A stretch of 24,000 nucleotides of DNA from Candidatus Sigynarchaeum calidifontis (GTDB taxonomy: Archaea; Asgardarchaeota; Lokiarchaeia; Sigyniarchaeales; Sigyniarchaeaceae), in the NCBI GenBank assembly GCA_030587475.2, contig JAUQYZ020000243.1, positions 12,007 through 36,006 on the forward strand, given 5' to 3'. Under the pieces are notes generated by a model. The model did not search any database. It worked only from the letters and a program-made list of their open reading frames with translations, and had not been told where the DNA came from. This document shows, one piece after another, positions 2,558 to 24,000 of this stretch (the first letter of the stretch is position 1; each line of letters starts with the position of its first letter). A program made the translations under genes and the position numbers.

Positions 2558-2611
2558 GAACACGAATCACCTAAAGCTGGTTGAACGTTCCATGTCGATT
2601 TCTGGGCCATG

Positions 2612-3603: not shown

Positions 3604-3615
3604 GAGGGAAGGATC

Positions 3616-4392
3616 ATGGCAGACTTTTCTGAACGCATTGCATCTGCAAGCGAGAGGGACGCTTGCGTTCTTGACGTCGACAACCTCGTCGATGCGATGC
3701 GCGGGATCGTGCCAGGGACTGATGATGGAGCGCTGCAATCCATGGCCTTGAAGATAAACGACATCATTCAAGATGAATGCCAGCTCCACAAGAAGATACT
3801 CGTTCCACGGCTATACACGAAGATACGGCGGCGGATAGGTCTCCAGTCCACGGCGGCGCTGCAAGTCATCGAATACCTCGAGAAAAACCATTTTATAAAG
3901 GACAATTCTACGCTCCTCAAAGCCACGCTCATGGAAAACGGGCGGCGGAAAATCATCTTCCAGGAGATCTCGAGATTTCCCGGGATTTATTTCAACCTTC
4001 TTAAATCCCGAACAGGCTCCGGAAGCAAGGTTTTGGAGCACCATCTCTCGATACTCATCGAGTTTGGCTACATTTTCGAGGAGTCGATGAACGGGAAGCG
4101 CTGTTTCTTCCCCGCAACAACGTCGAGGGAGGATGCATGGTTTCATTACTTCTTCCAGCTCGAAACTGCGAGAAAGCTCATCGACGTGCTATCGCAAGCG
4201 GGCGATGAACGACTCGAGCTGCAAGAGATCAGCAGGCGTGCTTGCCTTGCATACCCGCTCGTGGCATATCACATGGCCAAGCTGCTCAACAAGAACGTCG
4301 TCGTGGTGCAAGAATCAGTGGACCGACGAGTGTATGGATTGAGCCGCGAATTTGCCGCATTCGTCAAGCGTATGCATGATTTGGTCGATTGA
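3616..4392 (+). CDS. Multi-winged-helix (ArsR/MarR-like wHTH) transcriptional regulator
   Basis: 258-aa ORF starting 12 nt after the previous stop, with a purine-rich GGGAAGGA just upstream. Two to three wHTH-like units, e.g. RRKIIFQEISRFPGIYFNLLKSRTGSGSKVLEHHLSILIEFGYIFEESMNGKRCFF and LELQEISRRACLAYPLVAYHMAKLLNKNVVVVQESVDRRVYGLS. Confidence 0.65.
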   Translation: MADFSERIASASERDACVLDVDNLVDAMRGIVPGTDDGALQSMALKINDIIQDECQLHKKILVPRLYTKIRRRIGLQSTAALQVIEYLEKNHFIKDNSTLLKATLMENGRRKIIFQEISRFPGIYFNLLKSRTGSGSKVLEHHLSILIEFGYIFEESMNGKRCFFPATTSREDAWFHYFFQLETARKLIDVLSQAGDERLELQEISRRACLAYPLVAYHMAKLLNKNVVVVQESVDRRVYGLSREFAAFVKRMHDLVD

Positions 4393-9306: not shown

Positions 9307-9319
9307 GGCTTTTAATTCA

Positions 9320-9326
9320 TTTTTTT
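9320..9326 (+). terminator. T7 tract 14 nt downstream of the AOR1 stop
   Basis: CATTTTTTTAATAAA directly after TGA at 9304-9306, followed by an AT-rich spacer. Confidence 0.5.
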
Positions 9327-9414
9327 AATAAATCCTTAAAAATCCTATCTGTGATACTGAATCTAGTTGATATTATCATCTTATTTACAAAAGATGGACT
9401 AGGATGAGAGCTTT

Positions 9415-10074
9415 ATGGAAAACAGTGGAATCAACAAGCACTTTGTCAGCTTAATCGTAATGTATTTCGCATGGGTCGGTCTTTGCACTACCATTGTCTC
9501 GTTACTCATAATTCAGGCTAAAGCACAAGTTGATCTCGGTGGCGACGTGGATATTACATCGATAGTCGGGATAATCCTCGCTTCCACGTTCGGTTTTGGT
9601 GTTGCCGGGTTAGGCATCGTGCTTTCAATAATAGGGCTCAATTTATACAAGAAAAAGCCTGATGTGGCCAAGGGTTTCGGTATTGCCAACTTCGTGTTCA
9701 TTTTAACAGGTCTGGGAACCATGGTCGCTGGATCGATAATGATCAGCATAGGCTTTGCTAATATATTCGAATGTATAGAGCATCCTTATAGCCCGGCATG
9801 GTTGGAAAAATGTCAACAAGATCTCGTCTTCCAAATAGTGATCGTCATTTGCATGGTTGTTATGGCCTTACTGTCTGTCATCGGGATCGTGGGCTGCGTG
9901 AAGATTGTAAGTAAATTGAACCAATTCGCGCCGCGTACAGGATTCGTTCAAGCCCCTGCCGCATCGGCACAACCTGTTGCTTCAACTGGATCGAAGGGTA
10001 ACTTTTGCTCGGCATGCGGCGCTGAAAATCCGCAAGATTCCAAGTTCTGCAAAAAATGCGGCGCAGCCATGTAA
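9415..10074 (+). CDS. 4-TM membrane protein with a C-terminal zinc-ribbon (Cx2C-x10-Cx2C)
   Basis: 219 aa. Four long hydrophobic helices, then FCSACGAENPQDSKFCKKCGAAM at the C-terminus. AGGATGA motif about 8 nt upstream of the ATG. The gene and its flanks are visibly more AT-rich, with A/T-ending codons, than the neighbouring AOR genes. Confidence 0.7.
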   Translation: MENSGINKHFVSLIVMYFAWVGLCTTIVSLLIIQAKAQVDLGGDVDITSIVGIILASTFGFGVAGLGIVLSIIGLNLYKKKPDVAKGFGIANFVFILTGLGTMVAGSIMISIGFANIFECIEHPYSPAWLEKCQQDLVFQIVIVICMVVMALLSVIGIVGCVKIVSKLNQFAPRTGFVQAPAASAQPVASTGSKGNFCSACGAENPQDSKFCKKCGAAM

Positions 10075-10284
10075 TAGTCTCGTCTTGCAACTCTATCTTA
10101 CTTTTCTTTCTGTCTCACCAAATATTTTTACGAAAAATGGCAGCCGGGACAAGGGAAGAGTATCGTTCTAGGTGCACGTTTATGTCGGCAAGGAAAAGGA
10201 CAGAACGCTTTATAGTCACGCGTGGGGATCTGTTCTCAACACAGTAATGTTCATGATCGAAAACGAGCGAGGACGTAAAACAAC

Positions 10285-12123
10285 ATGTCAATCAACATGA
10301 AACTCTTGAAAATTGACCTTACAAACGGAAAATCGAGCACCTTGCCTCTTGACAAGTCGCTTTACAAGGCATTCGTCGGGGGCGCGGGAATGGCAGCACG
10401 GATCTTGTACCCGATGCTCAACGTGCGTATAGATGCATTGTCTCCTGCCAATCCTCTTCTTTTTATGGCTGGCGCGTTGGCTGGCACGCTTGCGCCGAAT
10501 TTCGGGCGACACGTCGTTTGTGCTCGATCCCCGTTGACTGGCATTTGGGGCGAGTCCAATTGCGGAGGCACGTGGGGGGCGGAGCTCAAGCTGGCGGGCT
10601 GGGACGGCATATTGCTGCTCGGCGCGGCAAAAGATTGGACACAAGTGGTGATCAAGGACGATGATGTCCAGTTACTCGATGCACGAACCCTTGCTGGAAA
10701 GCGCGTGACCGAAACCGAAGCGACGATAAAGAAAGACATCGGCGAGAACAAGCTCAAGATATCGAGTATCGGCCCTGCCGGCGAGCACCTTGTCAAATAC
10801 GCCGCAATCATCTCCGATGAAGGCCGCGCGGCAGGACGCACGGGCATGGGCGCGGTCATGGGATCCAAGAAGGTCAAAGCAATTTCGATAATCGGGACAA
10901 AAAAACCAACGATCGCGGATCCGGCGAAGTTTAACGAGGCCAAGCAACAGCTGCAGCAAGAAATCAAGGATAACTTCACGCTGAACATGTTCAGTGATCT
11001 TGGCAATGCGGGCTATGTTGACATGGCTAGCGTGACCGGGGATCTTGCGTTCAAATATTTCACCAAAGGCGAATGGGACGGTGCATATGATATCTCCGGT
11101 GCGAGTATGAAAGAATCGATTCTCAAGAAACAATTCTTCTGCAAGCAATGCATCGTCGGCTGCGGTCGCATCGTCGATGTGCCGGAGGGCAAGTACAAGA
11201 CCCCCGGCCCAGTGCATGGTCCAGAATACGAGACTATCGGAGCCTTCGGTGCAACCATGCTCTGCCGGGATCTCAAGGCTATCGCCCAGGCGAACTATTT
11301 ATGCAACGACTTCGGTGTCGACACGATCAGTTGCGGTGTTTCCATCGGGTTTGCCTATTATTTGCAAGAAAAGGGCTTGTTGCCTCCAGCCAAGATCGAG
11401 GGCTTAAAACTCGAATGGGGGAATCTAGATCCTGCCATCGCCTTGATAAGCAAGATTGCCAATCGAGAGGGCATCGGAAACGTTCTAGCCGAGGGCGTGA
11501 TGGGCATCGCGGGGCATTTCGGCGTTCCTTTCGACGAGGCCGCTGCAGTTAATGGAATGGAGGTGCCGTTCCATGATGCACGCGCATATGTTGGTTCGGC
11601 TTTGGAATATGCGACGTCGCATCGAGGAGCATGCCACCAGTCTGCCCAGTATTACTTGACAAGCATGGGCGCGCCGTTTCCAGACTGGGGCATCATGCCC
11701 ATCGATCGATTCGAGCACGAGGGTGTTGCTGAATGCGTCGCCAAGCTTCAAGACATGCGGGCAGTCTTCCAGTCCTTGTCGCTCTGTAATTTCGTTGTGC
11801 CGAGCTCCGCCACGCTTCTGGCAGATTTGTTTTCGTCGGCGACGGGGGTGCCAATGACGAGGGAGGAGCTCATCCTCGCGGGCGAGCGGATCTGGACCTT
11901 GCGCCGCCTCATCAACTTGAATCTTGGATATTCGCCCACGTCAGAGAAGTTGCCGGCCATCTTGCTGAAACCGCTCGAGGGGGGAACGAGCGGGACGGTT
12001 CCAAACCTTGAAAAGATGCTGGCAGAATGGTACGCGTATCGTGGCTGGAATCGGGCTACTGGAAAGCCTCCAGAATCCAAGATCAAGAGCCTGGGATTGC
12101 ATGAGCTCAAATCAATTGTTTGA
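10285..12123 (+). CDS. aor: Aldehyde:ferredoxin oxidoreductase family (tungstopterin, 4Fe-4S) enzyme, paralog 2
   Basis: 612 aa. KLLKIDLTNG...FVGGAG, GPAGEHLVKYAAIISDEGRAAGRTGMGAVMGSKKVKAISIIG, Cx2Cx3C motif CKQCIVGC, NDFGVDTIS, MEVPFHDAR and SLSLCNF (candidate fourth Cys ligand). The start could instead be ATG 10297 (MKLLKIDL). Confidence 0.92.
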   Translation: MSINMKLLKIDLTNGKSSTLPLDKSLYKAFVGGAGMAARILYPMLNVRIDALSPANPLLFMAGALAGTLAPNFGRHVVCARSPLTGIWGESNCGGTWGAELKLAGWDGILLLGAAKDWTQVVIKDDDVQLLDARTLAGKRVTETEATIKKDIGENKLKISSIGPAGEHLVKYAAIISDEGRAAGRTGMGAVMGSKKVKAISIIGTKKPTIADPAKFNEAKQQLQQEIKDNFTLNMFSDLGNAGYVDMASVTGDLAFKYFTKGEWDGAYDISGASMKESILKKQFFCKQCIVGCGRIVDVPEGKYKTPGPVHGPEYETIGAFGATMLCRDLKAIAQANYLCNDFGVDTISCGVSIGFAYYLQEKGLLPPAKIEGLKLEWGNLDPAIALISKIANREGIGNVLAEGVMGIAGHFGVPFDEAAAVNGMEVPFHDARAYVGSALEYATSHRGACHQSAQYYLTSMGAPFPDWGIMPIDRFEHEGVAECVAKLQDMRAVFQSLSLCNFVVPSSATLLADLFSSATGVPMTREELILAGERIWTLRRLINLNLGYSPTSEKLPAILLKPLEGGTSGTVPNLEKMLAEWYAYRGWNRATGKPPESKIKSLGLHELKSIV

Positions 12124-12270: not shown

Positions 12271-13692
12271 ATGTCCGAAACTAGCAATCCCCCACCATCG
12301 CGCACGCTTCTCGGCTGGCGCTTGGTCTTGTTTGCAATTGGCACATTGGGGCAAATGGCTCCGATTGGCTTTTACAACACGTACGCGACCACCTTCTATA
12401 ACTTGACCGTCGGGCTTAATCCCACCATCACGTTTACGGGGCTATTCCTTGGACTGACCACGTTTGCCGTCATGGCACCTGTTTTTGGCACGATAGTCGA
12501 TAATAAATCGCCGGGGCGGCTTGGAAAACGCAAGCCGTTCTTGCTCCTGGGCATTCCGCTCATCATCGTGCTCATGATAGTCGCATGGATGCCCCCGCTG
12601 TGCCCGATGGAGGGGGGCGTGATCGTCGACCCGAACTACATGCCGACGACGGTGTATTACCTCGTCGTGACGCTGCTCGTGTATTTGAACCAGGCGTTGC
12701 TGGTCAGCACGTACCTGTCAATGCTCTCGGAGCAATCAACGGATCAAGATAACCGCGTCAAGATAGCGACGCTCCAAGGTATCTTCAGCATCATCGGCAC
12801 CGTGCTCTCGATCCTCGTCCCGATCACCCTGGAGAGCAAGCTCGTCGATCGAACCAACACCTACTGGTTTACCGTTTCTGGCCAGTATCTCACGTCAATA
12901 TTACCAGTGGTCGGGGTCATTTTCGCGTTGGTCGGCGCGGGTTCCTTCATCGCGGTGTACCTGGCATCGGACGAGTCGTTCCTCGCCACGCGTGCCACCA
13001 AGGAACGGCCACGAACAGCCCTCCGAGAAACCTTCAGCCAGATCGCAGCCCCCTTTTCCGACAAGAACTACCGATATTGGCTCGGTAACGCCTTTTTCTT
13101 CAACATGGCGATCCGCATCTTGATCGTCATCTTGATCCCCGTCATGCGCTTTGTGCTCGAGTTGGAAGAAAATCAAAACATCTGGTTTTTCGTTGCCATC
13201 ATTCCTTTCGCCCTCGGCGGATATGTCCTCTGGGCTCGGAAGATAAAAACATCAGGGCTGAAGGCATCCTATGGCTTGAGCTTGCTCGTGAACGTCATCT
13301 TCGCATTCGTCGCGCTGGTTTTCCTCATACCGATGGAGCCGGGAATCCGGTTCGCTCTCGGTGCCGTCGTCTTGGGCATGTTGATATCCTCGCTCGTCGG
13401 CGGGTACTTGTTTCCGAACCCCATCGTGAGCACGCTGGTCGATAGAGCGCCCTCCGCGATGCGGGCAAGGGCGGACGCGCTCGGGCGCGGGATATCGGGG
13501 AGTTACTTCGGCTTGTACATTTTCTCTTATAACATATCGCAAGCGCTCACCAACATCATCCTGCTATTCATCATCACGCAAGAGACGAAGACGAACCCCC
13601 TCTACATCCTGGCAACCCTTCCAGTCGCGGGGATCCTCGTGTTGATTTCTTACTTGTTTCTTCGCAAGCTCGACTTGCCAAAAATGAAGTAG
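12271..13692 (+). CDS. MFS-superfamily transporter, glycoside-pentoside-hexuronide (GPH)/MelB-like cation symporter family
   Basis: 473 aa with about 12 TM helices. The loop 2-3 motif FGTIVDNKSPGRLGKRKPFLLLGIPL matches the GPH signature D..(s/t)...G+R+P. A TATA-like AGTTTTATTTGAA lies about 30-40 nt upstream. Confidence 0.7.
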   Translation: MSETSNPPPSRTLLGWRLVLFAIGTLGQMAPIGFYNTYATTFYNLTVGLNPTITFTGLFLGLTTFAVMAPVFGTIVDNKSPGRLGKRKPFLLLGIPLIIVLMIVAWMPPLCPMEGGVIVDPNYMPTTVYYLVVTLLVYLNQALLVSTYLSMLSEQSTDQDNRVKIATLQGIFSIIGTVLSILVPITLESKLVDRTNTYWFTVSGQYLTSILPVVGVIFALVGAGSFIAVYLASDESFLATRATKERPRTALRETFSQIAAPFSDKNYRYWLGNAFFFNMAIRILIVILIPVMRFVLELEENQNIWFFVAIIPFALGGYVLWARKIKTSGLKASYGLSLLVNVIFAFVALVFLIPMEPGIRFALGAVVLGMLISSLVGGYLFPNPIVSTLVDRAPSAMRARADALGRGISGSYFGLYIFSYNISQALTNIILLFIITQETKTNPLYILATLPVAGILVLISYLFLRKLDLPKMK

Positions 13693-13873: not shown

Positions 13874-14689
13874 ATGTTCATGGCAGACGAAAACGCTATC
13901 TTTAAATTCTTCAAAGGCACGTTTTCGAGGAAAACGATGCTCACGCGTCTCGTTCCCTCCATTCTTGCAATTTTGCTCGTGACTTTGTTCATAGCAGGCT
14001 TGATGTTCCCAAAGGCGTATGATTGGCGTTATCTCGTGATCTCGGCGCTCTTGAGCACGCAGCACAATCCAATCTGGAACGCATTTCCAGCGATAGGAAT
14101 GACCGTGGGGGGAATCTTGATGATAGGAATGCTTGGCTATTACCAGAAGAGGCTGGGGAAGATCTGCCGCGGGACAACGGGCGTGGGAACCGCTTTCTTG
14201 CTCGTCGCCATCATCGGCCTCATCGGTGTCGGCACGATCGGGCAAGCGGGCGAGTTGATCCCCGAATTCCACGCCATCCTCGTCGATGCCGGGCTCGAGA
14301 AACTGCACGAATACCTGGCTGCGCTCGGTTTTCTTGGCGTGGTCTTCACGGCTATCTTCTACAGTTGTCCCATTTTAAAGGATCATTTCCGAGGCGCGAA
14401 ACAATTCAACATGCGCATCTTCTTGGCCAGCCTCGTTCCGATCCTCGTCGGCGTCGTGGGGTTGGCCTTGAGTTCCTTGTATACCGCGCTTACAGAATGG
14501 GGGAGTCCTCTGGGGAATCCAGCAAATCCCCGTGTCGAGGATGCTGGTAAATATCCTGCATGGATCAGCTTTGCCTTTTGGGAATGGATACTTTTCATTG
14601 GCGTGGTTATTTACATCGTCATGCTCGCGGTCCTGGTTCCTGAAACCGTGATACCATTCGAAAAACGCAATAAAGAAATGAAAGGATGA
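13874..14689 (+). CDS. Polytopic membrane protein (6-7 TM), unknown function, possibly DUF998-like
   Basis: 271 aa with hydrophobic helices throughout. PKAYDWRYLVISALLSTQHNP loosely resembles the N-terminal DUF998 motif. TTTAATTATT lies 15-25 nt upstream, so the start may be ATG 13880. Confidence 0.55.
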   Translation: MFMADENAIFKFFKGTFSRKTMLTRLVPSILAILLVTLFIAGLMFPKAYDWRYLVISALLSTQHNPIWNAFPAIGMTVGGILMIGMLGYYQKRLGKICRGTTGVGTAFLLVAIIGLIGVGTIGQAGELIPEFHAILVDAGLEKLHEYLAALGFLGVVFTAIFYSCPILKDHFRGAKQFNMRIFLASLVPILVGVVGLALSSLYTALTEWGSPLGNPANPRVEDAGKYPAWISFAFWEWILFIGVVIYIVMLAVLVPETVIPFEKRNKEMKG

Positions 14690-14754: not shown

Positions 14755-15477
14755 TCATGGCGAGCCCGCCGGATGGCCCCCGGGGCGTGGATGGCTTGCC
14801 GCGTGGGCAAACGGTGTCTTGTCCTTGATCTCGACGGCCTTGCATAGATACCCGAATGGGTACTTGTCTTGATGGAGATGGAAAGCATCCATGGCGAATA
14901 ATTCCCTTGCGGCGAGTAAAAACTGGTAATATGGATTTCCAGGGAAAACCTTGACGATCACTGCATTGAACTGGAAGCTGGGGTACTTGGGGGCCTCGCC
15001 TGTATAGAGTAACGATATCCGGGGATTTCGCTCCATGTTTTTTGCGGTCTGGCCCTCGAATATCTCGAGGCCGCCGAGCATGCACGTGTCGAAATTGTCC
15101 ACGTCGCTGTAAAAGGTCTCCATTGCCTTCAACCGTGCCGGCAAGGTTTCTTGAACCGGCTTTCCGGCACTCTCCAACCGTGCTTTATCGAGCATGTCCG
15201 TGAAGAACGCGATCTTTTCTTGCTTGGGGACGACTCCCATGCCGCGTGTCGACAAGTTCACGGGGAAATCGTTTTCATTCCCTTCGGGATCCCACGTCGC
15301 GAGCACCGGCAAGTGCGCTGGCTGGGCTCGCACCTGGCTCGCGCCACCCTGGGCCATGGCCTTGAACATGCGCACGCGCGCTTCGGATTGCCACTCGAGG
15401 AATGACCGTGGAAGCGCCACGGTCGAAAACGTGCGCTTTTTTCCCCCAATCGTTATTTCGATGATGTTTTCTCCCAT
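14755..15477 (-). CDS. Soluble conserved-looking hypothetical protein; weak hint of an FMN-binding split-barrel-like C-terminal half
   Basis: 240-aa ORF with ordinary composition and no TM segments. The competing overlapping ORFs are Arg/Pro/Gly-rich shadows. The LEIFEGQTAKNMERNPRISLLYTG...FNAVIVKVFPGNPYYQF pattern is only loosely reminiscent of PNPOx-like barrels. Confidence 0.5.
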   Translation of the reverse strand: MGENIIEITIGGKKRTFSTVALPRSFLEWQSEARVRMFKAMAQGGASQVRAQPAHLPVLATWDPEGNENDFPVNLSTRGMGVVPKQEKIAFFTDMLDKARLESAGKPVQETLPARLKAMETFYSDVDNFDTCMLGGLEIFEGQTAKNMERNPRISLLYTGEAPKYPSFQFNAVIVKVFPGNPYYQFLLAARELFAMDAFHLHQDKYPFGYLCKAVEIKDKTPFAHAASHPRPGGHPAGSP

Positions 15478-15506: not shown

Positions 15507-15530
15507 ACGACCGCATCGGTCGTTATAAAG
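15507..15530. promoter_or_regulatory. Perfect 7-3-7 palindrome abutting a TATA box in the divergent intergenic region upstream of the envelope cluster
   Basis: ACGACCG-CAT-CGGTCGT (15507-15523) is followed directly by TTATAAAG (15523-15530). The region separates ATG 15477 (minus) from ATG 15593 (plus). Confidence 0.4.
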
Positions 15531-15592
15531 GATACGATGATTAACCATGCCGGCGATCAGCTTGATGACGAACGCGAACGCGTGGTTTGGCA

Positions 15593-17062
15593 ATGAATCG
15601 ATCCAAAGGCGTGATCGTGGCAGGTCTATTACTGCTCGCCATGGTTCCCGTGCTCATCACGATGCACGCGATGCTCGTGCAAGAAACGATCAAGATCGTC
15701 GATCCGATGATCGGCGCCCCGCAGTTCAGCAAGCCTGGCGGATCGTTCATGGTCTTCGTCGAAAAAACGGGCTGGGTAGATCCTGGCTCGTGGAAGGCGC
15801 AGATGCAGTCAGTCGACTTCCCGTGGGCAGCCGCGATCCCCCTTCCCATCGAGGACTCGGGCATGTTTCGCGAAGGCCGACACGTGTTAACCGTTCGGGT
15901 GCCGTCCACGTCTTTACCCGGCTTGTACGACTTGAACGTGTCGTGCACGTCGCTGGGCACGCGCTACTCGGCCATCGAGCCCCACTCGGTCTGCATCTAT
16001 GCGAACGTGTCCACGCTGCGATTCGCGCACCTCACGGATCCGCACGTTACCATTCCGGACAAGACCGTGAACATGAACGTCGCCCCGCCGCACACATCGG
16101 CCACGTGGATGGAGCGCTCGATCAACAACAATTTACGATGGTTACTCGAGAACGTTTCAGTTGCACGTCCGGAGTTTGTCCTGCTCACGGGCGACATCGC
16201 CACTCGCGGGCTTGAGGATGAGTTCAAGACGGCCAGGGACATCATAATGGCCTCTAAAATTCCCGTTCTCTGCACGCTCGGCAATCATGACCATCGAAGT
16301 CCCCCGAGCTTCGCGTATTACCTTGCTCCCCCGTATTTCTCGCGCGTGATAGACGCTTGGCGAATCATCTGCCTGGACACCGGCGCAACCGAGGGTAACG
16401 GCTTGTTCGGGGCTCAATTAAGGTGGTTTGGCGATGAGCTCGTGGCGGCAGCGGCGGCGGGGCAGCAAGTCTTCGTCGGCATGCACATCCCATCGACAAC
16501 GGAGCCGATTAGCGGCTACACGATCGCGGGAAACGAGGAATTCCGGGCGCTGTGTAAGCAATATGGAGTCCGCGGGATTTTCACCGGCCACCATCACTAT
16601 TCCGATGCCGCGCATGATAACGGGTCGCAAGTCTTGATACCCGATCCCATGCCGCCGAGTGCAAAACCAATCTACGTGAAGACCGGGAGCACGACGCTCG
16701 ATTACGGCAACGGGGATCGCGGCATCGGCTGGCGATTCGTGTGTAGCTACAGGAATGGATCCTTGTCCATTGGCTATGACATAGCCGGGGCGGGCACGAG
16801 TGACCCGGTCGAAGACATCCCGCTGAATGGGTTATTTCGAGCGGATGGGGCCCTCTGGATAAACCTTACCAATTGTTATCGCATCACCTTCACGAACGTC
16901 ACGATCCCCGTGCAATTCTCACTCTCGTCCATTAGCGACCAATTCATCCCCTCTGAAGGCACGATCATTGGCCAAGTCCGCACTGAAACCATGGCCGGCC
17001 TTTTACTACGTATTACATTGCCTGAAACTAGCAGCAAGCAAATCACGTTCACGAGGATGTGA
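15593..17062 (+). CDS. Signal-anchored extracytoplasmic calcineurin-like metallophosphoesterase with N- and C-terminal beta-rich domains
   Basis: The ORF track start 15587 is TTG. ATG 15593 (MNRSKGVIVAGLLLLAMVPVLI) is preferred. All five MPE motifs are present in order: LTDPH, LLTGDIATRG, LGNHDH, VGMHIP, TGHHHY. One N-terminal TM helix and 7 N-x-S/T sequons in the ectodomain. Confidence 0.82.
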   Translation: MNRSKGVIVAGLLLLAMVPVLITMHAMLVQETIKIVDPMIGAPQFSKPGGSFMVFVEKTGWVDPGSWKAQMQSVDFPWAAAIPLPIEDSGMFREGRHVLTVRVPSTSLPGLYDLNVSCTSLGTRYSAIEPHSVCIYANVSTLRFAHLTDPHVTIPDKTVNMNVAPPHTSATWMERSINNNLRWLLENVSVARPEFVLLTGDIATRGLEDEFKTARDIIMASKIPVLCTLGNHDHRSPPSFAYYLAPPYFSRVIDAWRIICLDTGATEGNGLFGAQLRWFGDELVAAAAAGQQVFVGMHIPSTTEPISGYTIAGNEEFRALCKQYGVRGIFTGHHHYSDAAHDNGSQVLIPDPMPPSAKPIYVKTGSTTLDYGNGDRGIGWRFVCSYRNGSLSIGYDIAGAGTSDPVEDIPLNGLFRADGALWINLTNCYRITFTNVTIPVQFSLSSISDQFIPSEGTIIGQVRTETMAGLLLRITLPETSSKQITFTRM

Positions 17063-18351
17063 TGGCCACGAGCGCAAGTATCCCATCTAACAAGATCGAT
17101 CTGTCGTGGCTGCAGCGCACGTTCGAGACCCATCTCCCCGTTATGGCCCTTTGTACCATCGTCATCCCCAGCATCGTGTTCGGGATGTTCACGATGGGGC
17201 TCAACCCTGAAGATAGCGAGCTCCGCACGACATACTACATCGTGATCACGGCGGCGATGCCCGTATCGATGCTGGGCGGTTTCTTGCTCGCGATGATGCC
17301 GGCTCGAAGGGTTCTCCTCATCGCTCTCGATGCGGCGACCGGGGTGGTGGCGTTCTTGTCGTACGCGTGGTTTCAGGCCAGGATATCGATCGTGCCGGCC
17401 GACCATGCATCGACCTTCCCGGGCTGGCAATGGCAGTCCCAATACCAGCAAGACGTGCTAACGGCGCTCGTCATCGTCATGTCGCTGCGCTGCGGCATGT
17501 CCTTCCCTCGCCGCGGAGCGATGCCATCCGCGGATGGAGACACGTCGGCCGCTTGGGCAACGGCGTGTTCCTTGATCGTGATTGCTTCCGTGTATTTCGT
17601 CAGCTGGCTGTTCGGGACATGGTGGCTCCTCCACTTGCAAGTTGCGTGCATCGCGTTTGGGAGTTGCGGCGTGCAAGTGCTGCTCCCGCGTTATCCAAGC
17701 TCGACCGACGAGCATCCGGCAGCGACCGGGATGCGGAATACAACATGGATGCCCATCCTCTTCGGTTTCGGCATCCCGCCCCTCATGCTTGCCCAGGGCT
17801 TCACTATAGGCGTAGCTTTCGTCGTGAATAGTTGGTCTGCTAGCTGGTGTGCCCACATTGGCATTATGATACTCACGGCGAGCCTTGTTTCGTGCGGGAT
17901 CTTGTCAGCAGAGAAGCGGCTCGCGAAGGTAATGGATACCGCGTGGATACTCATCACAGCAGACGCGTTGCTGCTATTTCTTGTCATCTTGCTTCATTCC
18001 CGGGCCATTGTTCCCGTTGCGCCCAGCTGGAGCATGGCAAGCGGGGTTTCGGCTGGGCTGATTGCCACTGCCTTGGCCAAGCTCGCAACTAACCATCGCC
18101 ATCCCTTCCGTGCAACAGTGCACTTGATGCTGGCCTTGTTTTGCACTACCATCGGCATTGGCGGGGGTATCGCGTACTATCTCTATTCGGGCCAGTCGAT
18201 TTCAATCTTGCCAGGTGGGGTTTCATCTGAATTACTGATTGCTTTCACCATTTCCGGTTCTGCGATTTTCGCTGCCATCATGATAATTTTGATTATCGGC
18301 ATGCGTGCCATCATCAAGGTGCGGCATCACGAGGTGAAAGCTTCGCATTGA
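17062..18351 (+). CDS. Polytopic membrane protein (about 12 TM), no recognisable family
   Basis: ATG 17062 overlaps the upstream stop (TGATG), with GAGGA 4 nt upstream; the track start GTG 17059 is also possible. About 429 aa, almost entirely hydrophobic helices with short loops. The first loop contains NPEDSE. Confidence 0.65.
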   Translation: MATSASIPSNKIDLSWLQRTFETHLPVMALCTIVIPSIVFGMFTMGLNPEDSELRTTYYIVITAAMPVSMLGGFLLAMMPARRVLLIALDAATGVVAFLSYAWFQARISIVPADHASTFPGWQWQSQYQQDVLTALVIVMSLRCGMSFPRRGAMPSADGDTSAAWATACSLIVIASVYFVSWLFGTWWLLHLQVACIAFGSCGVQVLLPRYPSSTDEHPAATGMRNTTWMPILFGFGIPPLMLAQGFTIGVAFVVNSWSASWCAHIGIMILTASLVSCGILSAEKRLAKVMDTAWILITADALLLFLVILLHSRAIVPVAPSWSMASGVSAGLIATALAKLATNHRHPFRATVHLMLALFCTTIGIGGGIAYYLYSGQSISILPGGVSSELLIAFTISGSAIFAAIMIILIIGMRAIIKVRHHEVKASH

Positions 18352-21239
18352 GCGGAATCTCGGAGCGAGTGACGGTTGCCGAGCGCTGTGGCCCGGTTGC
18401 CCGATGGGCTTTCACGCTCGTGTATCTGGGGCTCTCGCTCGCAGTTTTTTTCACATATCCCGTGATAGGGTACATCGCGGAGCACGGTTCATTCGATGTG
18501 GAAGCTTTCCTATCGGGTGACGTGTTCGGCAACTACCGCATCAGCCTGGTCGATGCGCTGCTCGATGCAGAGCATTTACTTGCGAACTTCATGACCGTGA
18601 TCCTTTTCTCGCTCGTGCTCTCCGCTTTCCTCGTCCATTACGGACCTTCCAAGGGTGAGGCAAGACCGGAGGAATTCTCGAAGCGATATTTTGGCCGGGC
18701 CAAGTGGCTCGGCTTCGCTGCTGCCACGATACTCGGCACGGCCATCGTGCTGACCGTCACCGGCATTGGATACACCCGGCCCGAGCTCGAGGGGCGTACC
18801 GCCTCGATAATGCTCGGGAACTTCCACCCGGAGAACTTCTCGGTGCACGTGTTCTACTATCTTTTCCTGTTCTCGGGACTGCCAGGCTTTTTTTACATCA
18901 TTGCTGCAGGGAAGGCAAACCCACGGCGGAGTACATGGCGCCCAGAACGTCCGCGGGTCGGCTTGTTTCTCCTGATCGTTTCCTTGCTAATCCTGGAGAT
19001 CGTCGCCCTGTTCTCGCCTTTGGTGATGTGGGACGTGATCAATGCGCGCACCTCGATTCGCGAGATCTTGTACTCGATCATCGACAGCGCGTTCATCACG
19101 GCCATCGTGCTCGTAATAGAGTGGCGCGACCGGGCTCGCTTGTCGCAGCCAGCCATCAAGGCAGACACGGACGCTGGCATGCCGAGGATCGTAAAGCACA
19201 TGATCACGTGGAGCATCCCCATAATTGCATTCCTGGGTCTCGTGATTTTCATGTTTTCGGAAGGGTATCTCGAACTCTTCATCAGCGTTGCATATTACTT
19301 GTCAAGAACATGGACATTTGCCTTTGCGGTCGTGTTCACCTTGTTCTTGTACCACGCCGGCACTCTCGTGAAGCTTGGCTACAAGCCCGCTAGATGGAAG
19401 TTGCCCAATCTCTCCCGCGTCAAGCCACGCGTGCTAGCTGCCTTGTTGATCGCCAACTTTGCCATCGCGGGATCCTTGGTCGTGATAAAGGCCCATGTAG
19501 AATCGCCGGTCCTAATAATGAACCAGGCAGGGTACCTTCCCGCGCAAGACAAGACGTTCCTCGTGAAGACGAGGTATTTGCACCAATCCGGGTGCTTCGA
19601 CGTTCTCGAAGCATCGAGCGGGATACCTGTCCTCAGCGCGGCACCCCTCGAATACGTCGGCACGAGCTGGGGTGCGCATTATTACCGCGGAAACGCGTCG
19701 GCCATCTCGACGAGCGGTTCCTACCGGATCGCCACGCGATTCGTCGATAATGGAATGGTCACCGCGGCCACGGCGCCGGAGCCGTTTAACGTCGGGACGG
19801 GCGTGTACGACCTCGCGGCGAGGCGCGGGTACGAGTTCTTTTACTACCAGCGGTGCGGCACGCGGGTGCACGAGATCGTGCCCGGTTACGTGGGCCACGA
19901 GCCGTGCCACTTGGATGATGGCATCATGTACAAGGGAGCCTGGTTGAATCTCACGGGAGCATGGCATTCTGCTGGCGATTATGCCAAGCATATATATTGG
20001 GGCATGCATTGCGAGGCTGTCATCTACTCGTGCTTGTTCGCGTACGAATTGGCGCCAGATCTTTATGATGGCATCGATCTCGTTACCGTGAATGGGGCCC
20101 CGATGCCAAATGGCATCCCGGACATCCTTGACGAGGCCATGTTCGGCCTCGAATATTACGAACGCAGCTTCCTCGACAATGGTACACTGCTAGGGTCGAT
20201 CGTGGGGGACCTGGTGTTTTGCCCGCCGGAGAAGGACACGGACAACATTCCTGGCACCGCGGACGACCGCCATCTCTTCTGGGAGGAAAACCACGTGCTC
20301 GCCCGGCCCTACGAGGCCATGTACGTCGCCGCGAGCTTCGCCAAGATGGCATGCATCGCTCGCGACAAGTCGTATTTCAGCAGCCGCGAGGCGGAAATGG
20401 CGCGATTCGCCGCTAACATCTACGGGAACTTTAGCACCGCGATAAACGTCACTGCCCCGAACCACCCGGCCATCAACAGCGAAGCATCGTCGCTGCTTCT
20501 CGCCACGCTCGAGATGTACCGGTATTTCGGCACGCCATCGCTGTCGAGCAAGTTGGATGCGGTCGCGGCCTACATCCACGATCATTTCCCCGATCCTGCA
20601 GTGCTGTGGGGTGACGAGCTAGGTGAATGGAACCGGGTGCCTGGTTATTTCTGTTACTGGGCGCTCGTGAACGGATCGGCGACGGCGAGGGCCATGGCGG
20701 CTGACGTCGCCCTTGCAATGTTCAATGGGCGGTTCAAGCCGCTCGCATCGGAGCCAGGGAACTTGTTCGGCATGATGGAAGTCAAGCTCGATGATGGCCG
20801 AACCGAGCCGTTCTGGTCGCGCATCGGCCTCAACTCGTATTACTTGACCGCGGCCTTTTCCGCGTTCATGGCATACAACATCACCGGCGGCACGCGCCTT
20901 GATATCCTGGATTTCGGCTTGAAGCAAATCGGTTTCGTGCTCGGGACGAACCCGTATGGAATATCAATGGTCGAGGGCGTCGGCACGAGGAACCCGCCGA
21001 TCTACCACCACAGGTACGCGTACATCCCGGGGAACCCGCGCGGTGCCGTGCCCGGGGCCATCATCAACGGCATCATCGAGAAGGGCGGGTTGCCGTTCAT
21101 GAACGTGAACTCGGCGGCTGGCTCCAGCATCCAAGACCACCTCGCGGATGCAATGTCGAACGAGCCATGGTTGCCGCACAACGTGCACTTCATGTATGTC
21201 ATGGCGGCGTTACTCGGCTGCGTCCAAGGCATGCGATAG
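18348..21239 (+). CDS. Fusion protein: about 9-TM N-terminal domain + CelD_N-type Ig-like domain + glycoside hydrolase family 9-like (alpha/alpha)6 domain
   Basis: 963 aa. The TTG start overlaps the upstream TGA (TTGA), with GAGGTGA 10 nt upstream. Residues about 1-390 form nine hydrophobic helices. NQAGYLPAQDKTFLV...GSYRI...PFNVGTGVY matches the cellulase Ig-like N-domain. FFYYQRCG and GAWHSAGDYAKH correspond to GH9 GGW.DAGD..K. VEGVGTRNPPIYHHR matches GH9 signature 1. D-x4-A-x3-E-x5-N (IQDHLADAMSNEPWLPHN) has GH9 signature-2 spacing. Confidence 0.72.
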   Translation: MSGISERVTVAERCGPVARWAFTLVYLGLSLAVFFTYPVIGYIAEHGSFDVEAFLSGDVFGNYRISLVDALLDAEHLLANFMTVILFSLVLSAFLVHYGPSKGEARPEEFSKRYFGRAKWLGFAAATILGTAIVLTVTGIGYTRPELEGRTASIMLGNFHPENFSVHVFYYLFLFSGLPGFFYIIAAGKANPRRSTWRPERPRVGLFLLIVSLLILEIVALFSPLVMWDVINARTSIREILYSIIDSAFITAIVLVIEWRDRARLSQPAIKADTDAGMPRIVKHMITWSIPIIAFLGLVIFMFSEGYLELFISVAYYLSRTWTFAFAVVFTLFLYHAGTLVKLGYKPARWKLPNLSRVKPRVLAALLIANFAIAGSLVVIKAHVESPVLIMNQAGYLPAQDKTFLVKTRYLHQSGCFDVLEASSGIPVLSAAPLEYVGTSWGAHYYRGNASAISTSGSYRIATRFVDNGMVTAATAPEPFNVGTGVYDLAARRGYEFFYYQRCGTRVHEIVPGYVGHEPCHLDDGIMYKGAWLNLTGAWHSAGDYAKHIYWGMHCEAVIYSCLFAYELAPDLYDGIDLVTVNGAPMPNGIPDILDEAMFGLEYYERSFLDNGTLLGSIVGDLVFCPPEKDTDNIPGTADDRHLFWEENHVLARPYEAMYVAASFAKMACIARDKSYFSSREAEMARFAANIYGNFSTAINVTAPNHPAINSEASSLLLATLEMYRYFGTPSLSSKLDAVAAYIHDHFPDPAVLWGDELGEWNRVPGYFCYWALVNGSATARAMAADVALAMFNGRFKPLASEPGNLFGMMEVKLDDGRTEPFWSRIGLNSYYLTAAFSAFMAYNITGGTRLDILDFGLKQIGFVLGTNPYGISMVEGVGTRNPPIYHHRYAYIPGNPRGAVPGAIINGIIEKGGLPFMNVNSAAGSSIQDHLADAMSNEPWLPHNVHFMYVMAALLGCVQGMR

Positions 21240-21340
21240 CCAGACATGGTTTTCAGGTGTAATTCCACGCATCTTTCTGGATACCTATGCTTCTCACGCT
21301 CGCTGCGAACTTTCATTAAAGATCGAGCCTTGGATGTCAA

Positions 21341-21946
21341 GTGCCCGCCTTTTTCCACATCAGACCATCACATGCCAAGGTCGGTGCCATCACGATTGCT
21401 GCTTCCGGTATTTTGCTGCTTTTCGGGCTTTGGATACAAGTTCTCGAGGTATCGGTCATCCCTTCTGGTTACAACGTGCTTCACGTGGAGTTTGCCTTCA
21501 CGGCGGAGCAGATGGACAAGGTCCTCGAATCGTGGATCGCTTTGAACGTGCTGCACGTCGAGGTGTTTATTGACCAGCTCGACGTGCTGATGATGCCAGG
21601 ATGGAGCGTCATGTTCTTCGGCGTGCAAGTCCTCGGCTTGCGGGCACTCGACGCTCTCGGCGTGGGTGGACGTTTCCGAAGAGTATCGTGGAAATTGGTA
21701 TATTTTCCCCTGGTCGCCGGGGCTGCAGACACGGTCGAGAATGCCATCATCTTCCAGGTGCTGAGTAACCCGGCAACGTACAACCGGGTCCTTGTCCCTG
21801 TTCTGTTTACATTCGTCGTGACCAAGTGGGGGATGCTGTTCACGGGCATCGTGATCGGTGCCGTTGCAAACATCGGGGCGCTCGCGGTCGTGTTGATGCG
21901 TGCCAAGACCACGTCGCATCAGCGCGGGATCACGGGCATGGTTTAA
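21341..21946 (+). CDS. Small membrane protein (about 4 TM), unknown function
   Basis: 201-aa ORF with a GTG start and no upstream in-frame ATG. Clear hydrophobic helices. The larger antisense ORF 21368..22243 is Arg/Pro/Ser-rich and judged a shadow. Start codon uncertain. Confidence 0.5.
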   Translation: MPAFFHIRPSHAKVGAITIAASGILLLFGLWIQVLEVSVIPSGYNVLHVEFAFTAEQMDKVLESWIALNVLHVEVFIDQLDVLMMPGWSVMFFGVQVLGLRALDALGVGGRFRRVSWKLVYFPLVAGAADTVENAIIFQVLSNPATYNRVLVPVLFTFVVTKWGMLFTGIVIGAVANIGALAVVLMRAKTTSHQRGITGMV

Positions 21947-21965
21947 ACGCGTTCCATGCCGTGGA

Positions 21966-23249
21966 ATGACCATGGATCCTGGGAAAATCGAGGCGGTTCG
22001 CGCAGCCGAGGTCGCGGGCATTTGGTTTGCCCTTGCATCTGCCGCAGCATTTCTCCTCGACGAGTTGCTTTTCGGGGTCAAGTCGGCTTCCGAGCCAAGA
22101 ATCGTCGAGGCCGCAGCGGGGATACTGCTCGGCCTCCTTTCTTGTCTCGTGATCTCGCATCTCGCCGCTAGGTTTCCCCGGCTCGCAGCAATCATGAAAA
22201 TCACCGCCGTTGCATTGCTCGCAAGTCTTGGCGTTATCAACAATCTCGTTCACCTACCTTTAAACTTCCTAGCTCGGTTCGCGGTCTTGATTATCGCTAC
22301 ATTGCTCGCTTGGATCGAAACATCACGCGCGCGATCCTACAGCGATGATCTCGAACGTGGTAATGCAATCCAATTGCAGCGCATGAGCATCGCGATCGTC
22401 GTAGCTTCGCTTCTCGCCGGCGGGAGCCTCTGGCAGCAGCGTGAGAATTTCTATGCATGGCCTTCCGACTTGGAAGTGCTCATGTACACGATCACGGGCA
22501 CGGTGGCTGTCTGTCTCGCGGTGCTGCTCTTGATGGTAGAGCGCGATGCGATAGCAAATGGCGACATGGCGATGGTTCCGCGAACCGAAACGGGTGCGGA
22601 ACGGCCTCCCTGGACCACGGCACTCTTGGCGCTCTGCTCTGGCATGGCAGTGGGACTGTACATGTCCCTTTCGGCGCTCGTCGCCCAGAACACGGCGCTC
22701 GAATTCCCGAGCCGGGTCGTGTATGCAATCAACACGATGGTTCCAGTCGCTATGCTCGCGATCTGCATGGCTGGCACGAGGGCATCCAATATACCGGGAA
22801 CAGCACGAGTGCGGCGTTCCTTCATCAATGAGCCAGCTGGCTTGATTCTCCTCATGTTGACGATCGCGATTACCATCGGGGCCCCATGGATTCTTGGCAC
22901 GGCGAGCATCGTCGACTCCACTGTCGCAGGAACGATGCACGTCGCCGGGCTGATCTCGCTGCCATTGCTAGTATATTACATGCTGTCGAAACTGGCCGTG
23001 ATTCGCCAGACTGGTGGTTATCATGCCCTCGTCTCGTCGCTCGGCAGCGCGGGGCTCGTCATCGGCATCGCGGGGTACCTCGTCGGGGGAACCACGTACA
23101 ACATGGACTTCTACGTCGGCCTGGCCTTCACGGTGCTCATCGCCCATGGAGTGGTGGTGGCTTGGCTAATGGAGCGGTTCCCAAAAGAGCAGCCGCGGTG
23201 TGATGTCCAAGCAAGGCCATCGAGGGCAAAAATGGAGGTGGCGTCTTGA
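21966..23249 (+). CDS. Polytopic membrane protein (about 12 TM), no recognisable family
   Basis: The track ORF starts at 21900, overlapping the previous gene. ATG 21966 (MTMDPGKIE), 19 nt after the upstream stop, is preferred. About 12 hydrophobic helices, with one longer loop (DAIANGDMAMVPRTETGAERPPW). Confidence 0.62.
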   Translation: MTMDPGKIEAVRAAEVAGIWFALASAAAFLLDELLFGVKSASEPRIVEAAAGILLGLLSCLVISHLAARFPRLAAIMKITAVALLASLGVINNLVHLPLNFLARFAVLIIATLLAWIETSRARSYSDDLERGNAIQLQRMSIAIVVASLLAGGSLWQQRENFYAWPSDLEVLMYTITGTVAVCLAVLLLMVERDAIANGDMAMVPRTETGAERPPWTTALLALCSGMAVGLYMSLSALVAQNTALEFPSRVVYAINTMVPVAMLAICMAGTRASNIPGTARVRRSFINEPAGLILLMLTIAITIGAPWILGTASIVDSTVAGTMHVAGLISLPLLVYYMLSKLAVIRQTGGYHALVSSLGSAGLVIGIAGYLVGGTTYNMDFYVGLAFTVLIAHGVVVAWLMERFPKEQPRCDVQARPSRAKMEVAS

Positions 23250-23250
23250 G

Positions 23251-24000
23251 ATGCTGAAACCGGGGGCAAGGAGGCCTGTCTGGGCAGTGGCGCTGGTTGC
23301 GGTCGTGATCGTCTCATCGATCCCTTTCATGCTGGAGATCTACCAAGACGCCAGGCTCGTGCAAACCCATCCGCTAGCACGCGAGAAACACGTGCTCGCC
23401 TACTATTACCCGTGGTTTCACAACGGCACCAATTACACGGGCGCGCTCGGCGACGCCATCGTGGAAAAAGGCAACGCGACGGGTTGGGCGAGGTGGGGCT
23501 CGCCCGAGGATCCGTGCTATAACTACACCCTCGCGTCGTCTTTAACCCAGCAACAAGTCTACTACTGGCGAAACGGGCTGGAGCGGAACTACTCGTGGGC
23601 ATCCATCGCCCATTGGCCGCTCGATGGCTTGTATGACGTCTCCGATCCCGACCAGATCAATCGCCATTTCGACCGCATGAACCGGGCCGGCATCGATGTC
23701 TTGATCGGCGACTTTTTCGGGGATTACGAGTTCCAGGACCCGACGATGGACGGCTATCTCGCCGTGGCTGCCAACCGCTCGGCCGAAGGGAAGCCGTCAC
23801 CGAAGATCACGTTCATGCTCGGCGTCTCGTGGGGCCCCGAGCAAGAATGGTGGGGGCCGACGAGCCGCAATGGCAGCGGCTGGGGCATCATCAGCCACGC
23901 GGAGTACATCTACCACTACGTGAAATCGTATCTCGATGCCCACGGTAACGATGCCCACTTCTTCCGGGTCAACGGCAAGCCGGTTTTTTTCACGTGGGCG
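23251..24000 (+). CDS. Signal-anchored GH99 / WbsX-like TIM-barrel glycosidase-like protein (3'-partial, runs off the window)
   Basis: Not in the ORF track because there is no stop before the window end. ATG 23251 lies 1 nt after the upstream stop, with GGAGGTG 9 nt upstream. My translation is MLKPGARRPVWAVALVAVVIVSSIPF...VLAYYYPWFHNGTNYTG...HWPLDGLYDVSDPDQINRHFDRMNRAGIDVLIGDFFG...VNGKPVFFTWA. The YYYPWF ... P.(L)G.Y(D/S)..D...I..H...M..AGID pattern is typical of the GH99/WbsX clan. 7 sequons in 250 aa. Confidence 0.55.
   Translation, partial: MLKPGARRPVWAVALVAVVIVSSIPFMLEIYQDARLVQTHPLAREKHVLAYYYPWFHNGTNYTGALGDAIVEKGNATGWARWGSPEDPCYNYTLASSLTQQQVYYWRNGLERNYSWASIAHWPLDGLYDVSDPDQINRHFDRMNRAGIDVLIGDFFGDYEFQDPTMDGYLAVAANRSAEGKPSPKITFMLGVSWGPEQEWWGPTSRNGSGWGIISHAEYIYHYVKSYLDAHGNDAHFFRVNGKPVFFTWA

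Follow-up and report, generated by a model that had tools for sequence, protein, structure and literature searches.

In Escherichia coli, the glpTQ genes pair a periplasmic glycerophosphodiesterase (GlpQ) with GlpT, a glycerol-3-phosphate:phosphate antiporter of the major facilitator superfamily (MFS), and in melAB-type operons glycoside hydrolases stand beside a symporter of the GPH type (glycoside/sugar:cation symporters; MFS_2 in Pfam). By analogy, glpTQ-type pairs and such glycosidase and GPH-symporter operons appear to be the closest functional counterparts of a locus that we analysed in a 24,000-nucleotide (nt) stretch of Candidatus Sigynarchaeum calidifontis DNA (contig JAUQYZ020000243.1, positions 12,007 to 36,006; the whole stretch is hereafter called the window). 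The structurally closest proteins are the theme-B enzymes of glycoside hydrolase family 9 (GH9), membrane-anchored GH9 enzymes of the KORRIGAN type and the endo-mannosidases of family GH99. The locus encodes an ecto-metallophosphoesterase (MPE), a protein with 12 transmembrane (TM) helices (TM12a), a fusion of an 8-TM domain with a GH9 enzyme (TM8::GH9), a small membrane protein (TM4), a second protein of about 12 helices (TM12b) and a GH99-like ectoenzyme (Table 1). We give an even chance to the reading that this is a surface digest-and-import locus, built in part from undescribed protein families; it is probably not a new machine for building glycans. We favour digestion and import because a model gives TM12a an MFS fold and a sugar symporter is a conserved neighbour, because accessory hydrolases are exchanged from lineage to lineage as in substrate-utilisation loci, because about ten related loci hold no glycosyltransferase, nucleotide-sugar or AglB gene, and because the promoter looks regulated, with an operator-like palindrome overlapping a promoter-like element.

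Compared with glpTQ, MPE and TM12a likewise form a two-gene unit of an extracytoplasmic phosphodiesterase-type enzyme and a 12-TM MFS-fold protein, and SLC37/G6PT, which are relatives of GlpT, are among the structural matches of TM12a. However, GlpQ belongs to the GDPD family and not to the MPE family (the best solved relatives of MPE are the class-III metallophosphodiesterases GpdQ and Rv0805), the sequence of TM12a resembles neither GlpT nor any Pfam MFS model, and MPE is a membrane-anchored protein of about 490 amino acids (aa) with additional N- and C-terminal domains. The likeness to melAB-type operons lies in glycoside hydrolases beside an MFS_2 symporter, as in a related locus (L011) that combines MFS_2 with GH9 and an alpha-galactosidase-like enzyme; here, in contrast, the hydrolases are extracellular, anchored and accompanied by orphan polytopic partners (TM8, TM12b), and there is no cytoplasmic glycosidase or kinase. 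Theme-B GH9 enzymes (C. thermocellum CelD, 1clc; the metagenomic endoglucanase 3x17; BoGH9A) share an immunoglobulin (Ig)-like module and an (alpha/alpha)6 GH9 domain with aligned HHR and NEP (Glu) motifs, and plant KORRIGAN shares the type-II membrane anchor, whereas the protein of the window differs from characterised GH9 enzymes in the Ser that replaces the initial Asp of DAGD, in its fusion or coupling to 8 TM helices and in its low sequence similarity. The GH99-like protein resembles the endo-alpha-1,2-mannosidases/mannanases BxGH99, BtGH99 and Golgi MANEA in scoring above the Pfam cutoff, in both catalytic Glu residues and, as in MANEA, in its type-II anchor, but its motif reads E-I-H-E and its gene is coupled to that of an orphan protein of about 12 TM helices. 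An upstream neighbour, g269, is a membrane protein similar in size to the DUF998 protein DrmA with at least 6 TM helices, and some of its orthologues match DUF998 and Frag1, although g269 of the window itself falls below detection. What is new relative to all of these analogues is an orphan polytopic partner for each enzyme, a sequence-isolated family with an MFS fold, a GH9 clade with SAGD, and the restriction to a few Asgard lineages.

Anchored hydrolases and their polytopic partners

An earlier note on this DNA had described six same-strand genes with a particular set of overlaps and gaps, and the open reading frame listing with translations, together with direct reading of the junctions, agrees with it throughout. 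MPE and TM12a overlap in a TGATG (17060-17064), the TTG start of the fusion gene (18348) overlaps the TGA of TM12a (18349-18351) with GAGGTGA 12 nt upstream (18330-18336), TM4 and TM12b are 19 nt apart (21947-21965), and a single G (23250) separates the TGA of TM12b (23247-23249) from the ATG of the GH99-like gene (23251), with GGAGGTG at 23234-23240. These four junctions, which either overlap or leave no more than 25 nt, are compatible with translational coupling. The remaining gap, between the fusion gene and TM4, is 101 nt long (21240-21340) and contains no stretch of five T or longer, in line with the statement that it lacks an oligo-T tract. By hydropathy, all three enzymes begin with a hydrophobic anchor or a membrane domain at the N terminus, and the density of N-glycosylation sequons in their ectodomains (12-19 per 1000 aa) is about 4-5 times that in the cytoplasmic proteins of the window (0-8); both findings support the outward placement that had been proposed for all three. 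BLASTP and hhalign gave no sign that TM12a, TM12b and the TM8 domain are paralogues of one another.

The phosphoesterase matches Pfam Metallophos (PF00149; E 5.6e-16, 60 bits against a cutoff of 21.5) over profile positions 1-190 of 191, and all five motifs of the family (DxH, GD, GNH(D/E), H and GHxH) are found in its translation as HLTDPH, LTGDIA, LGNHDH, GMHIP and TGHHHY, bearing out the identity and motif set first assigned to it. Its nearest relatives in the PDB are Rv0805/Icc (1e-9), GpdQ and SMPDL3B, the last of them only weakly similar, and the protein consists of an N-terminal anchor (residues 5-33), a beta-rich region, the MPE domain and a C-terminal domain. A role in defence was considered and rejected, with only faint NCBIfam matches of MPE to antiphage phosphoesterases and none found by PADLOC. 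MPE and TM12a form a strict pair: MPE is the gene immediately before TM12a in 10 of 11 lineages, including contigs without a nearby GH9 gene (L017/18, L021), and in seven lineages, with TM12a identities of 35-64%, the pair is followed directly by TM8/GH9 with start/stop overlaps.

In contrast to its partner enzyme, TM12a cannot be recognised by sequence: it has no Pfam or NCBIfam match at E<=1, no PDB match in sequence-profile searches and no PADLOC match, and its family is tiny, with 8 clusters in a set of 5.8e9 proteins and, when 1.84e9 were searched exhaustively by profile, 10 representatives. An AlphaFold model built on a 15-sequence alignment comprises 12 helices, residues 209-229 forming a disordered loop, and has a predicted local distance difference test (pLDDT) score of 78.9 and a predicted template modelling score (pTM) of 0.81. 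Foldseek searches with this model against the PDB gave 95 matches at E<=1e-3, and the top 50 were all MFS transporters aligned over their full length (E 1.2e-5 to 4e-4; TM-scores 0.47-0.66); the structural matches include sialin, MFSD2A, Spns2, NorA, SLC37/G6PT, GLUT5 and MelB. The model supersedes one from 8 sequences, whose Foldseek matches were MFS-like and not significant. No GT-C, Wzy or MOP fold appeared among the top 50, and the GT-C protein AftA reached a TM-score of 0.15 in the low-confidence search. The MFS motif A, GxxxD(R/K)xGR(R/K), is absent from loop 2-3, which reads MPARRV, and hhalign against an MFS_2 alignment from the locus returned a probability of 1%; this comparison fails even for TM12a, its positive control, and is uninformative on TM12b. 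Judged from the model, TM12a is MFS-like by fold only and not of the GT-C or Wzy type, and its most conserved motif, F-x-G-W-x-W-x-x-x-Y-Q, lies in a loop predicted to face outward. The suggestion in the earlier note that the polytopic proteins could form a core of, for example, GT-C-like transferases or polymerases is thus not supported for TM12a, the most widely conserved membrane protein of the locus.

The fusion protein matches Pfam GH9 over residues 487-951 (E 1.5e-29, 104 bits against a cutoff of 27.7; profile positions 1-443 of 444), which upholds its assignment. Its Ig-like CelD_N module is weak in the window copy (E 1e-3, 20.1 bits against 24.6) and is recorded for the orthologues in L011 and L014. 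In the alignment with PDB entry 3x17 (7e-16), SNEPWLPHN corresponds to TNEPAIDYN, keeping the acid Glu, and YHHRYAY to PHHRLV, keeping HHR. The fusion itself stands as the earlier note had it, but the membrane part counted there as nine helices is, by alignment with split forms, an 8-TM domain plus the anchor helix that belongs to the GH9 protein. In L011-13, L014/15 and L023/24, TM8 is encoded on its own (349-356 aa) and adjoins GH9 with a 1-nt gap or, in L014/15 and L023/24, an overlap, while the fusion is restricted to the clade of the window. The conserved polar motifs of TM8 (FGxxR, PENFSVH and WD...RE) fall in loops that hydropathy and the positive-inside rule predict to be outward. A word-indexed search for TM8 homologues returned one distant stand-alone protein (P0012) and missed fused orthologues at 62-73% identity, so the family sizes that it gives are lower bounds.

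Since the GH99-like gene runs beyond the window, its full length of 458 aa was rebuilt from an overlapping contig, L001 (JAUQYY020000061.1). The full-length protein, an N-terminal anchor followed by a TIM-barrel GH99 domain, scores 57.8 bits against a Pfam GH99 cutoff of 33 and so sustains the proposed assignment; the fragment in the window alone stays below threshold at 22.6 bits. Alignment with BxGH99 (4ad1; 2e-10) is strong only over the C-terminal third, where SWNEIHEG corresponds to SFNEWHEG, with both catalytic Glu residues kept and Trp replaced by Ile; the catalytic motif of the family is E-W-[H/G]-E (PMC11025385). TM12b, which always lies directly upstream of GH99 (L004, L006, L008-10), has three homologues in our search and no Pfam, NCBIfam, PADLOC or PDB sequence match; its hydropathy indicates about 12 helices, and its positive-inside pattern fits a 6+6 arrangement around a variable central loop. 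TM4, present in L004, L005, L008 and L014, has the conserved motifs HVEV-IDQLDV-MMPGW and AGAADTVEN, with no Pfam match for any of its five members and no PDB sequence match. The TM proteins of the cluster do not match the Pfam families PMT_2, Wzy_C, EpsG or MOP at E<=1. The statement that TM12a, TM12b and TM4 have no family assignable from sequence therefore survives searches of Pfam, NCBIfam, PADLOC and the PDB, and TM8, TM12b and TM4 remain orphan families, confined to Asgard sequences so far.

As a separate observation, contig L001 lacks 340 nt (window 22982-23321), with the result that TM12b residues 1-338 are joined in frame to GH99 from residue 25 in a called protein of 771 aa. L002 agrees with the window and not with L001, and the L001 fusion is likely to be either a loss-of-function population variant or an assembly artefact. 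We rejected it as Rosetta-stone evidence: by positive-inside topology, the hybrid helix would run from outside to inside and GH99 would be cytoplasmic.

Modular organisation of related Asgard loci

About 14 related contigs, every named one of them Asgard, were recovered and compared by tblastn and gene calls, and the cluster genes are likewise linked in five or more further species, with amino-acid identities of 42-88%. A scan of metagenome contigs with the TM12a alignment yielded one short locus, and a scan of genome contigs with the GH9 fusion yielded one locus. The gene order of the window is kept in L006 and in L008/9, the latter with an extra Sugar_tr gene upstream. In L004 the order is TM12b-GH99-MPE-TM12a-GH9-TM4, and L005 has MPE-TM12a-GH9-TM4 followed by eIF-1A, without TM12b-GH99. 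Four contigs (L014/15, L023/24) have DUF998-MPE-TM12a-TM8-GH9 with a separate TM8 (351-356 aa) and Ig-GH9 (613 aa); in L014 a surface C13 peptidase follows GH9, and TM4 lies further on. L011-13 contain MFS_2, the DUF998-like gene, TM8, GH9 and a 723-aa alpha-galactosidase-like ectoenzyme without MPE-TM12a, and MPE-TM12a stands alone in L017/18, L019/20 and L021. The comparison resolves the locus into three separable pairs, MPE with TM12a, TM8 with GH9 and TM12b with GH99, each made of a type-II ectohydrolase and a polytopic protein whose helices are even in number. Depending on lineage, these pairs are reshuffled, lost or accompanied by other surface hydrolases, the accessory set including GH99, the alpha-galactosidase-like enzyme, the C13 peptidase and a nearby GH39. 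Linkage across related genomes is therefore real, in that the genes stay together in related Asgard contigs, but a single fixed six-gene unit is not what they form, as the order is permuted (L004) and modules are lost (L005, L011) or occur alone (L017/18, L021).

Neither the 24-kb window nor about ten related loci contain a glycosyltransferase, nucleotide-sugar, lipid-carrier, AglB or Wzx/Wzy gene, and the cluster indeed lacks the glycosyltransferase, ATPase, Wzx/Wzy and AglB genes that the earlier note had described as absent. That it lacks a transporter as well holds for the six genes from MPE to GH99 but not beyond them, where a conserved neighbour encodes an MFS_2/GPH symporter and the Sugar_tr gene is added in one lineage. 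On the downstream side, eIF-1A and then opposite-strand genes follow GH99, and we therefore place the end of the cluster after GH99. The left boundary drawn at MPE was too tight, since MFS_2 and the DUF998-like gene are conserved neighbours.

Several features of individual contigs may be recorded here. The protein that follows GH9 in L014 (6413-8071) combines Peptidase_C13 with Big_7 and has a signal peptide and a C-terminal anchor; this C13 peptidase, a lead towards glycosylphosphatidylinositol (GPI) transamidase, has no PDB sequence match. The alpha-galactosidase-like protein after GH9 in L011 (12986-15157) is of the GH27/36 type, with a C-terminal anchor and many sequons. Genes for small GTPases of the Arf/Gtr1-RagA type lie within 10 kb of two related loci (L011 3387-4328; L021 14311-15357), which is consistent with an Asgard origin of these contigs.

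Candidate transcription signals and neighbouring genes

Upstream of MPE, the TTATAAAG/GATACGATGATTAACCATG element is near-invariant in five species and keeps a fixed spacing of 56 nt to the MPE ATG. Taken together, TTATAAAG and the palindrome ATGATTAACCAT look like a promoter with an operator, and we treat them as a candidate for one. Two other explanations of this region were rejected, namely an RNA leader or riboswitch (no Rfam match and no conserved RNA structure) and a 19-codon upstream open reading frame (15537-15596; its ATGA overlaps the MPE start), the stop of which is not conserved in L004, L007 and L008. A scan for bacterial sigma-70 promoters and terminators was set aside, since the host is archaeal.

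Within the larger gap of the cluster, GAAC-TTCATTAAAG is aligned in five species together with the conserved GTG start GTGCCCGCC of TM4. A TATA box about 24 nt before the start fits a leaderless transcript in archaea, and this element is likely an internal promoter that would give a leaderless TM4 transcript. Because the TATA-like element is conserved before the TM4 GTG, a second transcription unit is indicated, and the cluster likely comprises two, MPE-TM12a-GH9 and TM4-TM12b-GH99. Packing as for one transcript, as first described, is thus supported by tight coupling at four junctions but not across the fifth. The earlier note had also named what would speak against its reading of the cluster, namely variable gene order in related genomes, membrane proteins from well-characterised families and separate transcripts, and each of these was found in part: the order varies, TM12a falls by fold into a well-known superfamily, and separate transcripts are likely.

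On the upstream side, MFS_2 orthologues occupy the same position in L005, L008/9 and L011 (50-73% identity), giving symporter adjacency in four lineages including that of the window. Orthologues of g269 precede MPE in L007, L008, L014/15 and L023, and precede TM8 in L011. Two of five members of this family match DUF998 (PF06197; best E 5e-10) and Frag1 (7e-5), g269 itself has no match and the L015 orthologue carries a precomputed DUF998 match, which suggests that the family belongs to the DUF998/Frag1-like proteins. In the GYA24 'Lokiarchaeota' lineage, the extra MFS_1/Sugar_tr gene (L008 247-1521) lies between the MFS_2 symporter and the DUF998-like gene. The 240-aa protein encoded divergently from MPE has counterparts at 75-80% identity in L007 and L008 and a remnant in L005; it was not detected in L014/15 or L011.

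Further upstream, a gene of 301 aa and one of 258 aa with an HTH_HVO_0163_N domain (window 2698-4392) are syntenic at 78-85% identity in L005 and at 41-54% in L011, a distant contig, and because this pair stays syntenic with the cluster region in both, we regard the HTH_HVO_0163_N protein as a candidate regulator of the locus. Two paralogues of aldehyde:ferredoxin oxidoreductase (616 and 612 aa) flank a 219-aa protein with a terminal zinc ribbon at 7456-12123, and in L005 one such oxidoreductase and the zinc-ribbon gene likewise precede the symporter. Peptidase_M23 (lysostaphin-type) proteins are encoded in the window at 1922-2563 (minus strand) and, with 417 aa, downstream of the cluster (L001 16961-18214); an archaeon should lack peptidoglycan.

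Table 1. Positions of the genes, domains and candidate promoter elements discussed in the text (window numbering)
Feature	Coordinates	Strand	Remarks
MFS_2 (GPH-type glycoside/sugar:cation symporter family)	12271..13692	+	Pfam MFS_2, 2.4e-25
g269, DUF998/Frag1-like	13874..14689	+	6-7 TM by hydropathy; conserved neighbour
240-aa protein	14755-15477	-	Divergent from MPE; faint PNPOx-like match only
Promoter-like TTATAAAG with invariant GATACGATGATTAACCATG	15521..15549		Imperfect palindrome ATGATTAACCAT inside GATACGATGATTAACCATG
MPE, ecto-metallophosphoesterase	15593..17062	+	489 aa; ATG start as in the NCBI call
TM12a	17062..18351	+	12 TM; MFS fold by model; new sequence family
TM8::GH9 fusion gene	18348..21239	+	963 aa
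TM8 domain	18348..19400	+	8-TM N-terminal part of the fusion; no Pfam or PDB match
GH9 part	19425..21239	+	Anchor, residues 360-384; Ig-like CelD_N, 387-463; GH9 barrel, 487-951
TATA-like box GAAC-TTCATTAAAG	21308..21321		About 24 nt upstream of the TM4 start
TM4, small membrane protein	21341..21946	+	201 aa; 4-5 TM
TM12b	21966 (or 21972)..23249	+	About 12 TM, by hydropathy only
GH99-like ectoenzyme	23251..24000	+	First 250 of 458 codons; gene exceeds the window

Digestion and import weighed against other readings

In the digest-and-import reading, the anchored hydrolases would work at the membrane surface, cleaving extracellular material that contains phosphodiesters and glycans, and the adjacent carriers would capture the products before these diffuse away from a cell without a periplasm. 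TM12a would import the product of MPE and MFS_2 (with Sugar_tr in one lineage) the sugars, and TM8 and TM12b may be carriers too; physical pairing, the direction of transport, the substrates and the catabolic purpose are what we infer here. As in utilisation loci, ectohydrolases adjoin carriers (MFS_2 in the window, L005, L008/9 and L011; MPE with TM12a in 10 of 11 lineages), and the simplest version of the locus that supports the reading is L011, with MFS_2, the DUF998-like gene, TM8, GH9 and the alpha-galactosidase-like ectoenzyme. A number of points weigh against it. The cluster encodes no cytoplasmic sugar- or phosphoester-catabolic enzyme, and the adjacency of the symporter could be inherited synteny and not functional linkage. 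The TM12a model was built on only 15 sequences, its 8-sequence predecessor was poor (pLDDT 50), and fold evidence does not extend to the other orphan polytopic proteins, TM8, TM12b and TM4. Moreover, an MFS fold sets neither substrate nor direction, as flippases of lipids and glycolipids share it (the matches include MFSD2A and Spns2). In TM12a, TM8 and TM12b, the polar and aromatic motifs with the strongest conservation seem to be placed in outward loops; this is an uncommon trait for plain secondary carriers, and enzymes embedded in the membrane or partners that present lipids would fit it too. The only characterised DUF998 protein, DrmA of E. faecalis, affects the levels of a cationic glycolipid, Lys-Glc2-DAG (PMC13370385). 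Finally, the GH9 domain has SAGD (WHSAGDYAKH) for the catalytic DAGD, the two Asp of which act as base (PMC5651568). HSAGD is invariant in seven orthologues, which argues for a clade-wide, selected change; since the first Asp is Ser across the clade, ordinary cellulase or endoglucanase chemistry is not assured, and the clade may represent a new GH9 specificity.

Several of the same points suit the main rival, which is close to the idea of the earlier note and which we consider possible but on balance unlikely: that the ectoenzymes trim the cell's own glycolipids, lipoglycan or N-glycans, with TM8, TM12b, the DUF998-like protein and TM12a binding, presenting or flipping a lipid-linked substrate and MPE cutting a phosphodiester head group. 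Every enzyme is membrane-anchored and has a polytopic partner with conserved motifs that seem to face outward, the cluster is without catabolic cytoplasmic enzymes, lipid transporters (MFSD2A, Spns2) are among the MFS-fold matches of TM12a, MPE is weakly similar to the lipid-modifying SMPDL3B, and the invariant SAGD suggests a non-standard substrate for GH9. DUF998 is tied to glycolipid homeostasis (PMC13370385), and the family of g269 also has Frag1-like matches; GH99 enzymes trim N-glycans in eukaryotes (PMC11025385). Remodelling of the envelope sits poorly, however, with the absence of glycosyltransferase, AglB, nucleotide-sugar and lipid-carrier genes near about ten loci and with sugar symporters as conserved neighbours, and the swapping of hydrolases and loss of whole modules (TM12b-GH99 in L005, MPE-TM12a in L011) would be unexpected for a core envelope pathway; the operator-like element, too, suggests conditional expression. 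A more doubtful proposal has each surface hydrolase docked on its own polytopic protein (from the orphan families TM8, TM12b and TM4 or the new MFS-fold family), a design so far unrecognised, either as a hydrolase-carrier complex that would couple outside cleavage directly to translocation or, more radically, as a lipid-presenting system for glycolipid remodelling, in which one might hear echoes of GPI and endoplasmic reticulum-Golgi editing in eukaryotes because of the Frag1/PGAP2-like DUF998 protein, the ecto-MPE, the type-II GH99 and, in one lineage, the C13 peptidase.

It is improbable that MPE-TM12a, TM8-GH9, TM12b-GH99, TM4 and the symporter are independent small units that are neighbours merely by descent. 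Solitary MPE-TM12a pairs (L017/18, L021), TM8-GH9 without MPE (L011), the permuted order of L004 and the likely internal promoter before TM4 all fit such independence; yet MPE-TM12a is followed by TM8/GH9, with start/stop overlaps, in seven lineages whose TM12a identities are as low as 35%, the two halves of the locus are still adjacent after the L004 rearrangement, and every member is a protein of the membrane or the surface. Cellulose synthesis in plants and bacteria goes together with membrane-bound GH9 or GH8 enzymes (KORRIGAN, BcsZ), and this is a precedent for a biosynthetic or export machine: here the orphan polytopic proteins would act as transferases of a GT-C-like type, as polymerases or as flippases, and the hydrolases would edit the surface polymer that they build. 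We hold that reading to be very improbable. Fold evidence reaches TM12a only and leaves room for TM8, TM12b and TM4, and conserved acidic motifs in outward loops are reminiscent of GT-C or Wzy proteins, but TM12a has an MFS fold by its model, the single GT-C match (AftA) is negligible, the Pfam searches for PMT_2, Wzy_C, EpsG and MOP were negative, and no locus has a GT2 or other glycosyltransferase gene, nor genes for nucleotide sugars or carrier lipids.

If the locus proves to be a plain feeding locus with odd anchors, its value would lie mainly in better annotation of Asgard genomes. The MPE and MFS-fold pair, and TM8 and GH9 in their split and fused forms, are concrete cases for heterologous work. 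Should the pairing be physical, the locus would represent a novel means by which cells that have one membrane and lack a periplasm retain the products of their surface enzymes, and it would give a function to TM12a, TM8, TM12b and TM4, so far seen only in Asgard metagenomes. Asgard archaea are the closest prokaryotic relatives of eukaryotes, and their feeding and surface composition are poorly known.

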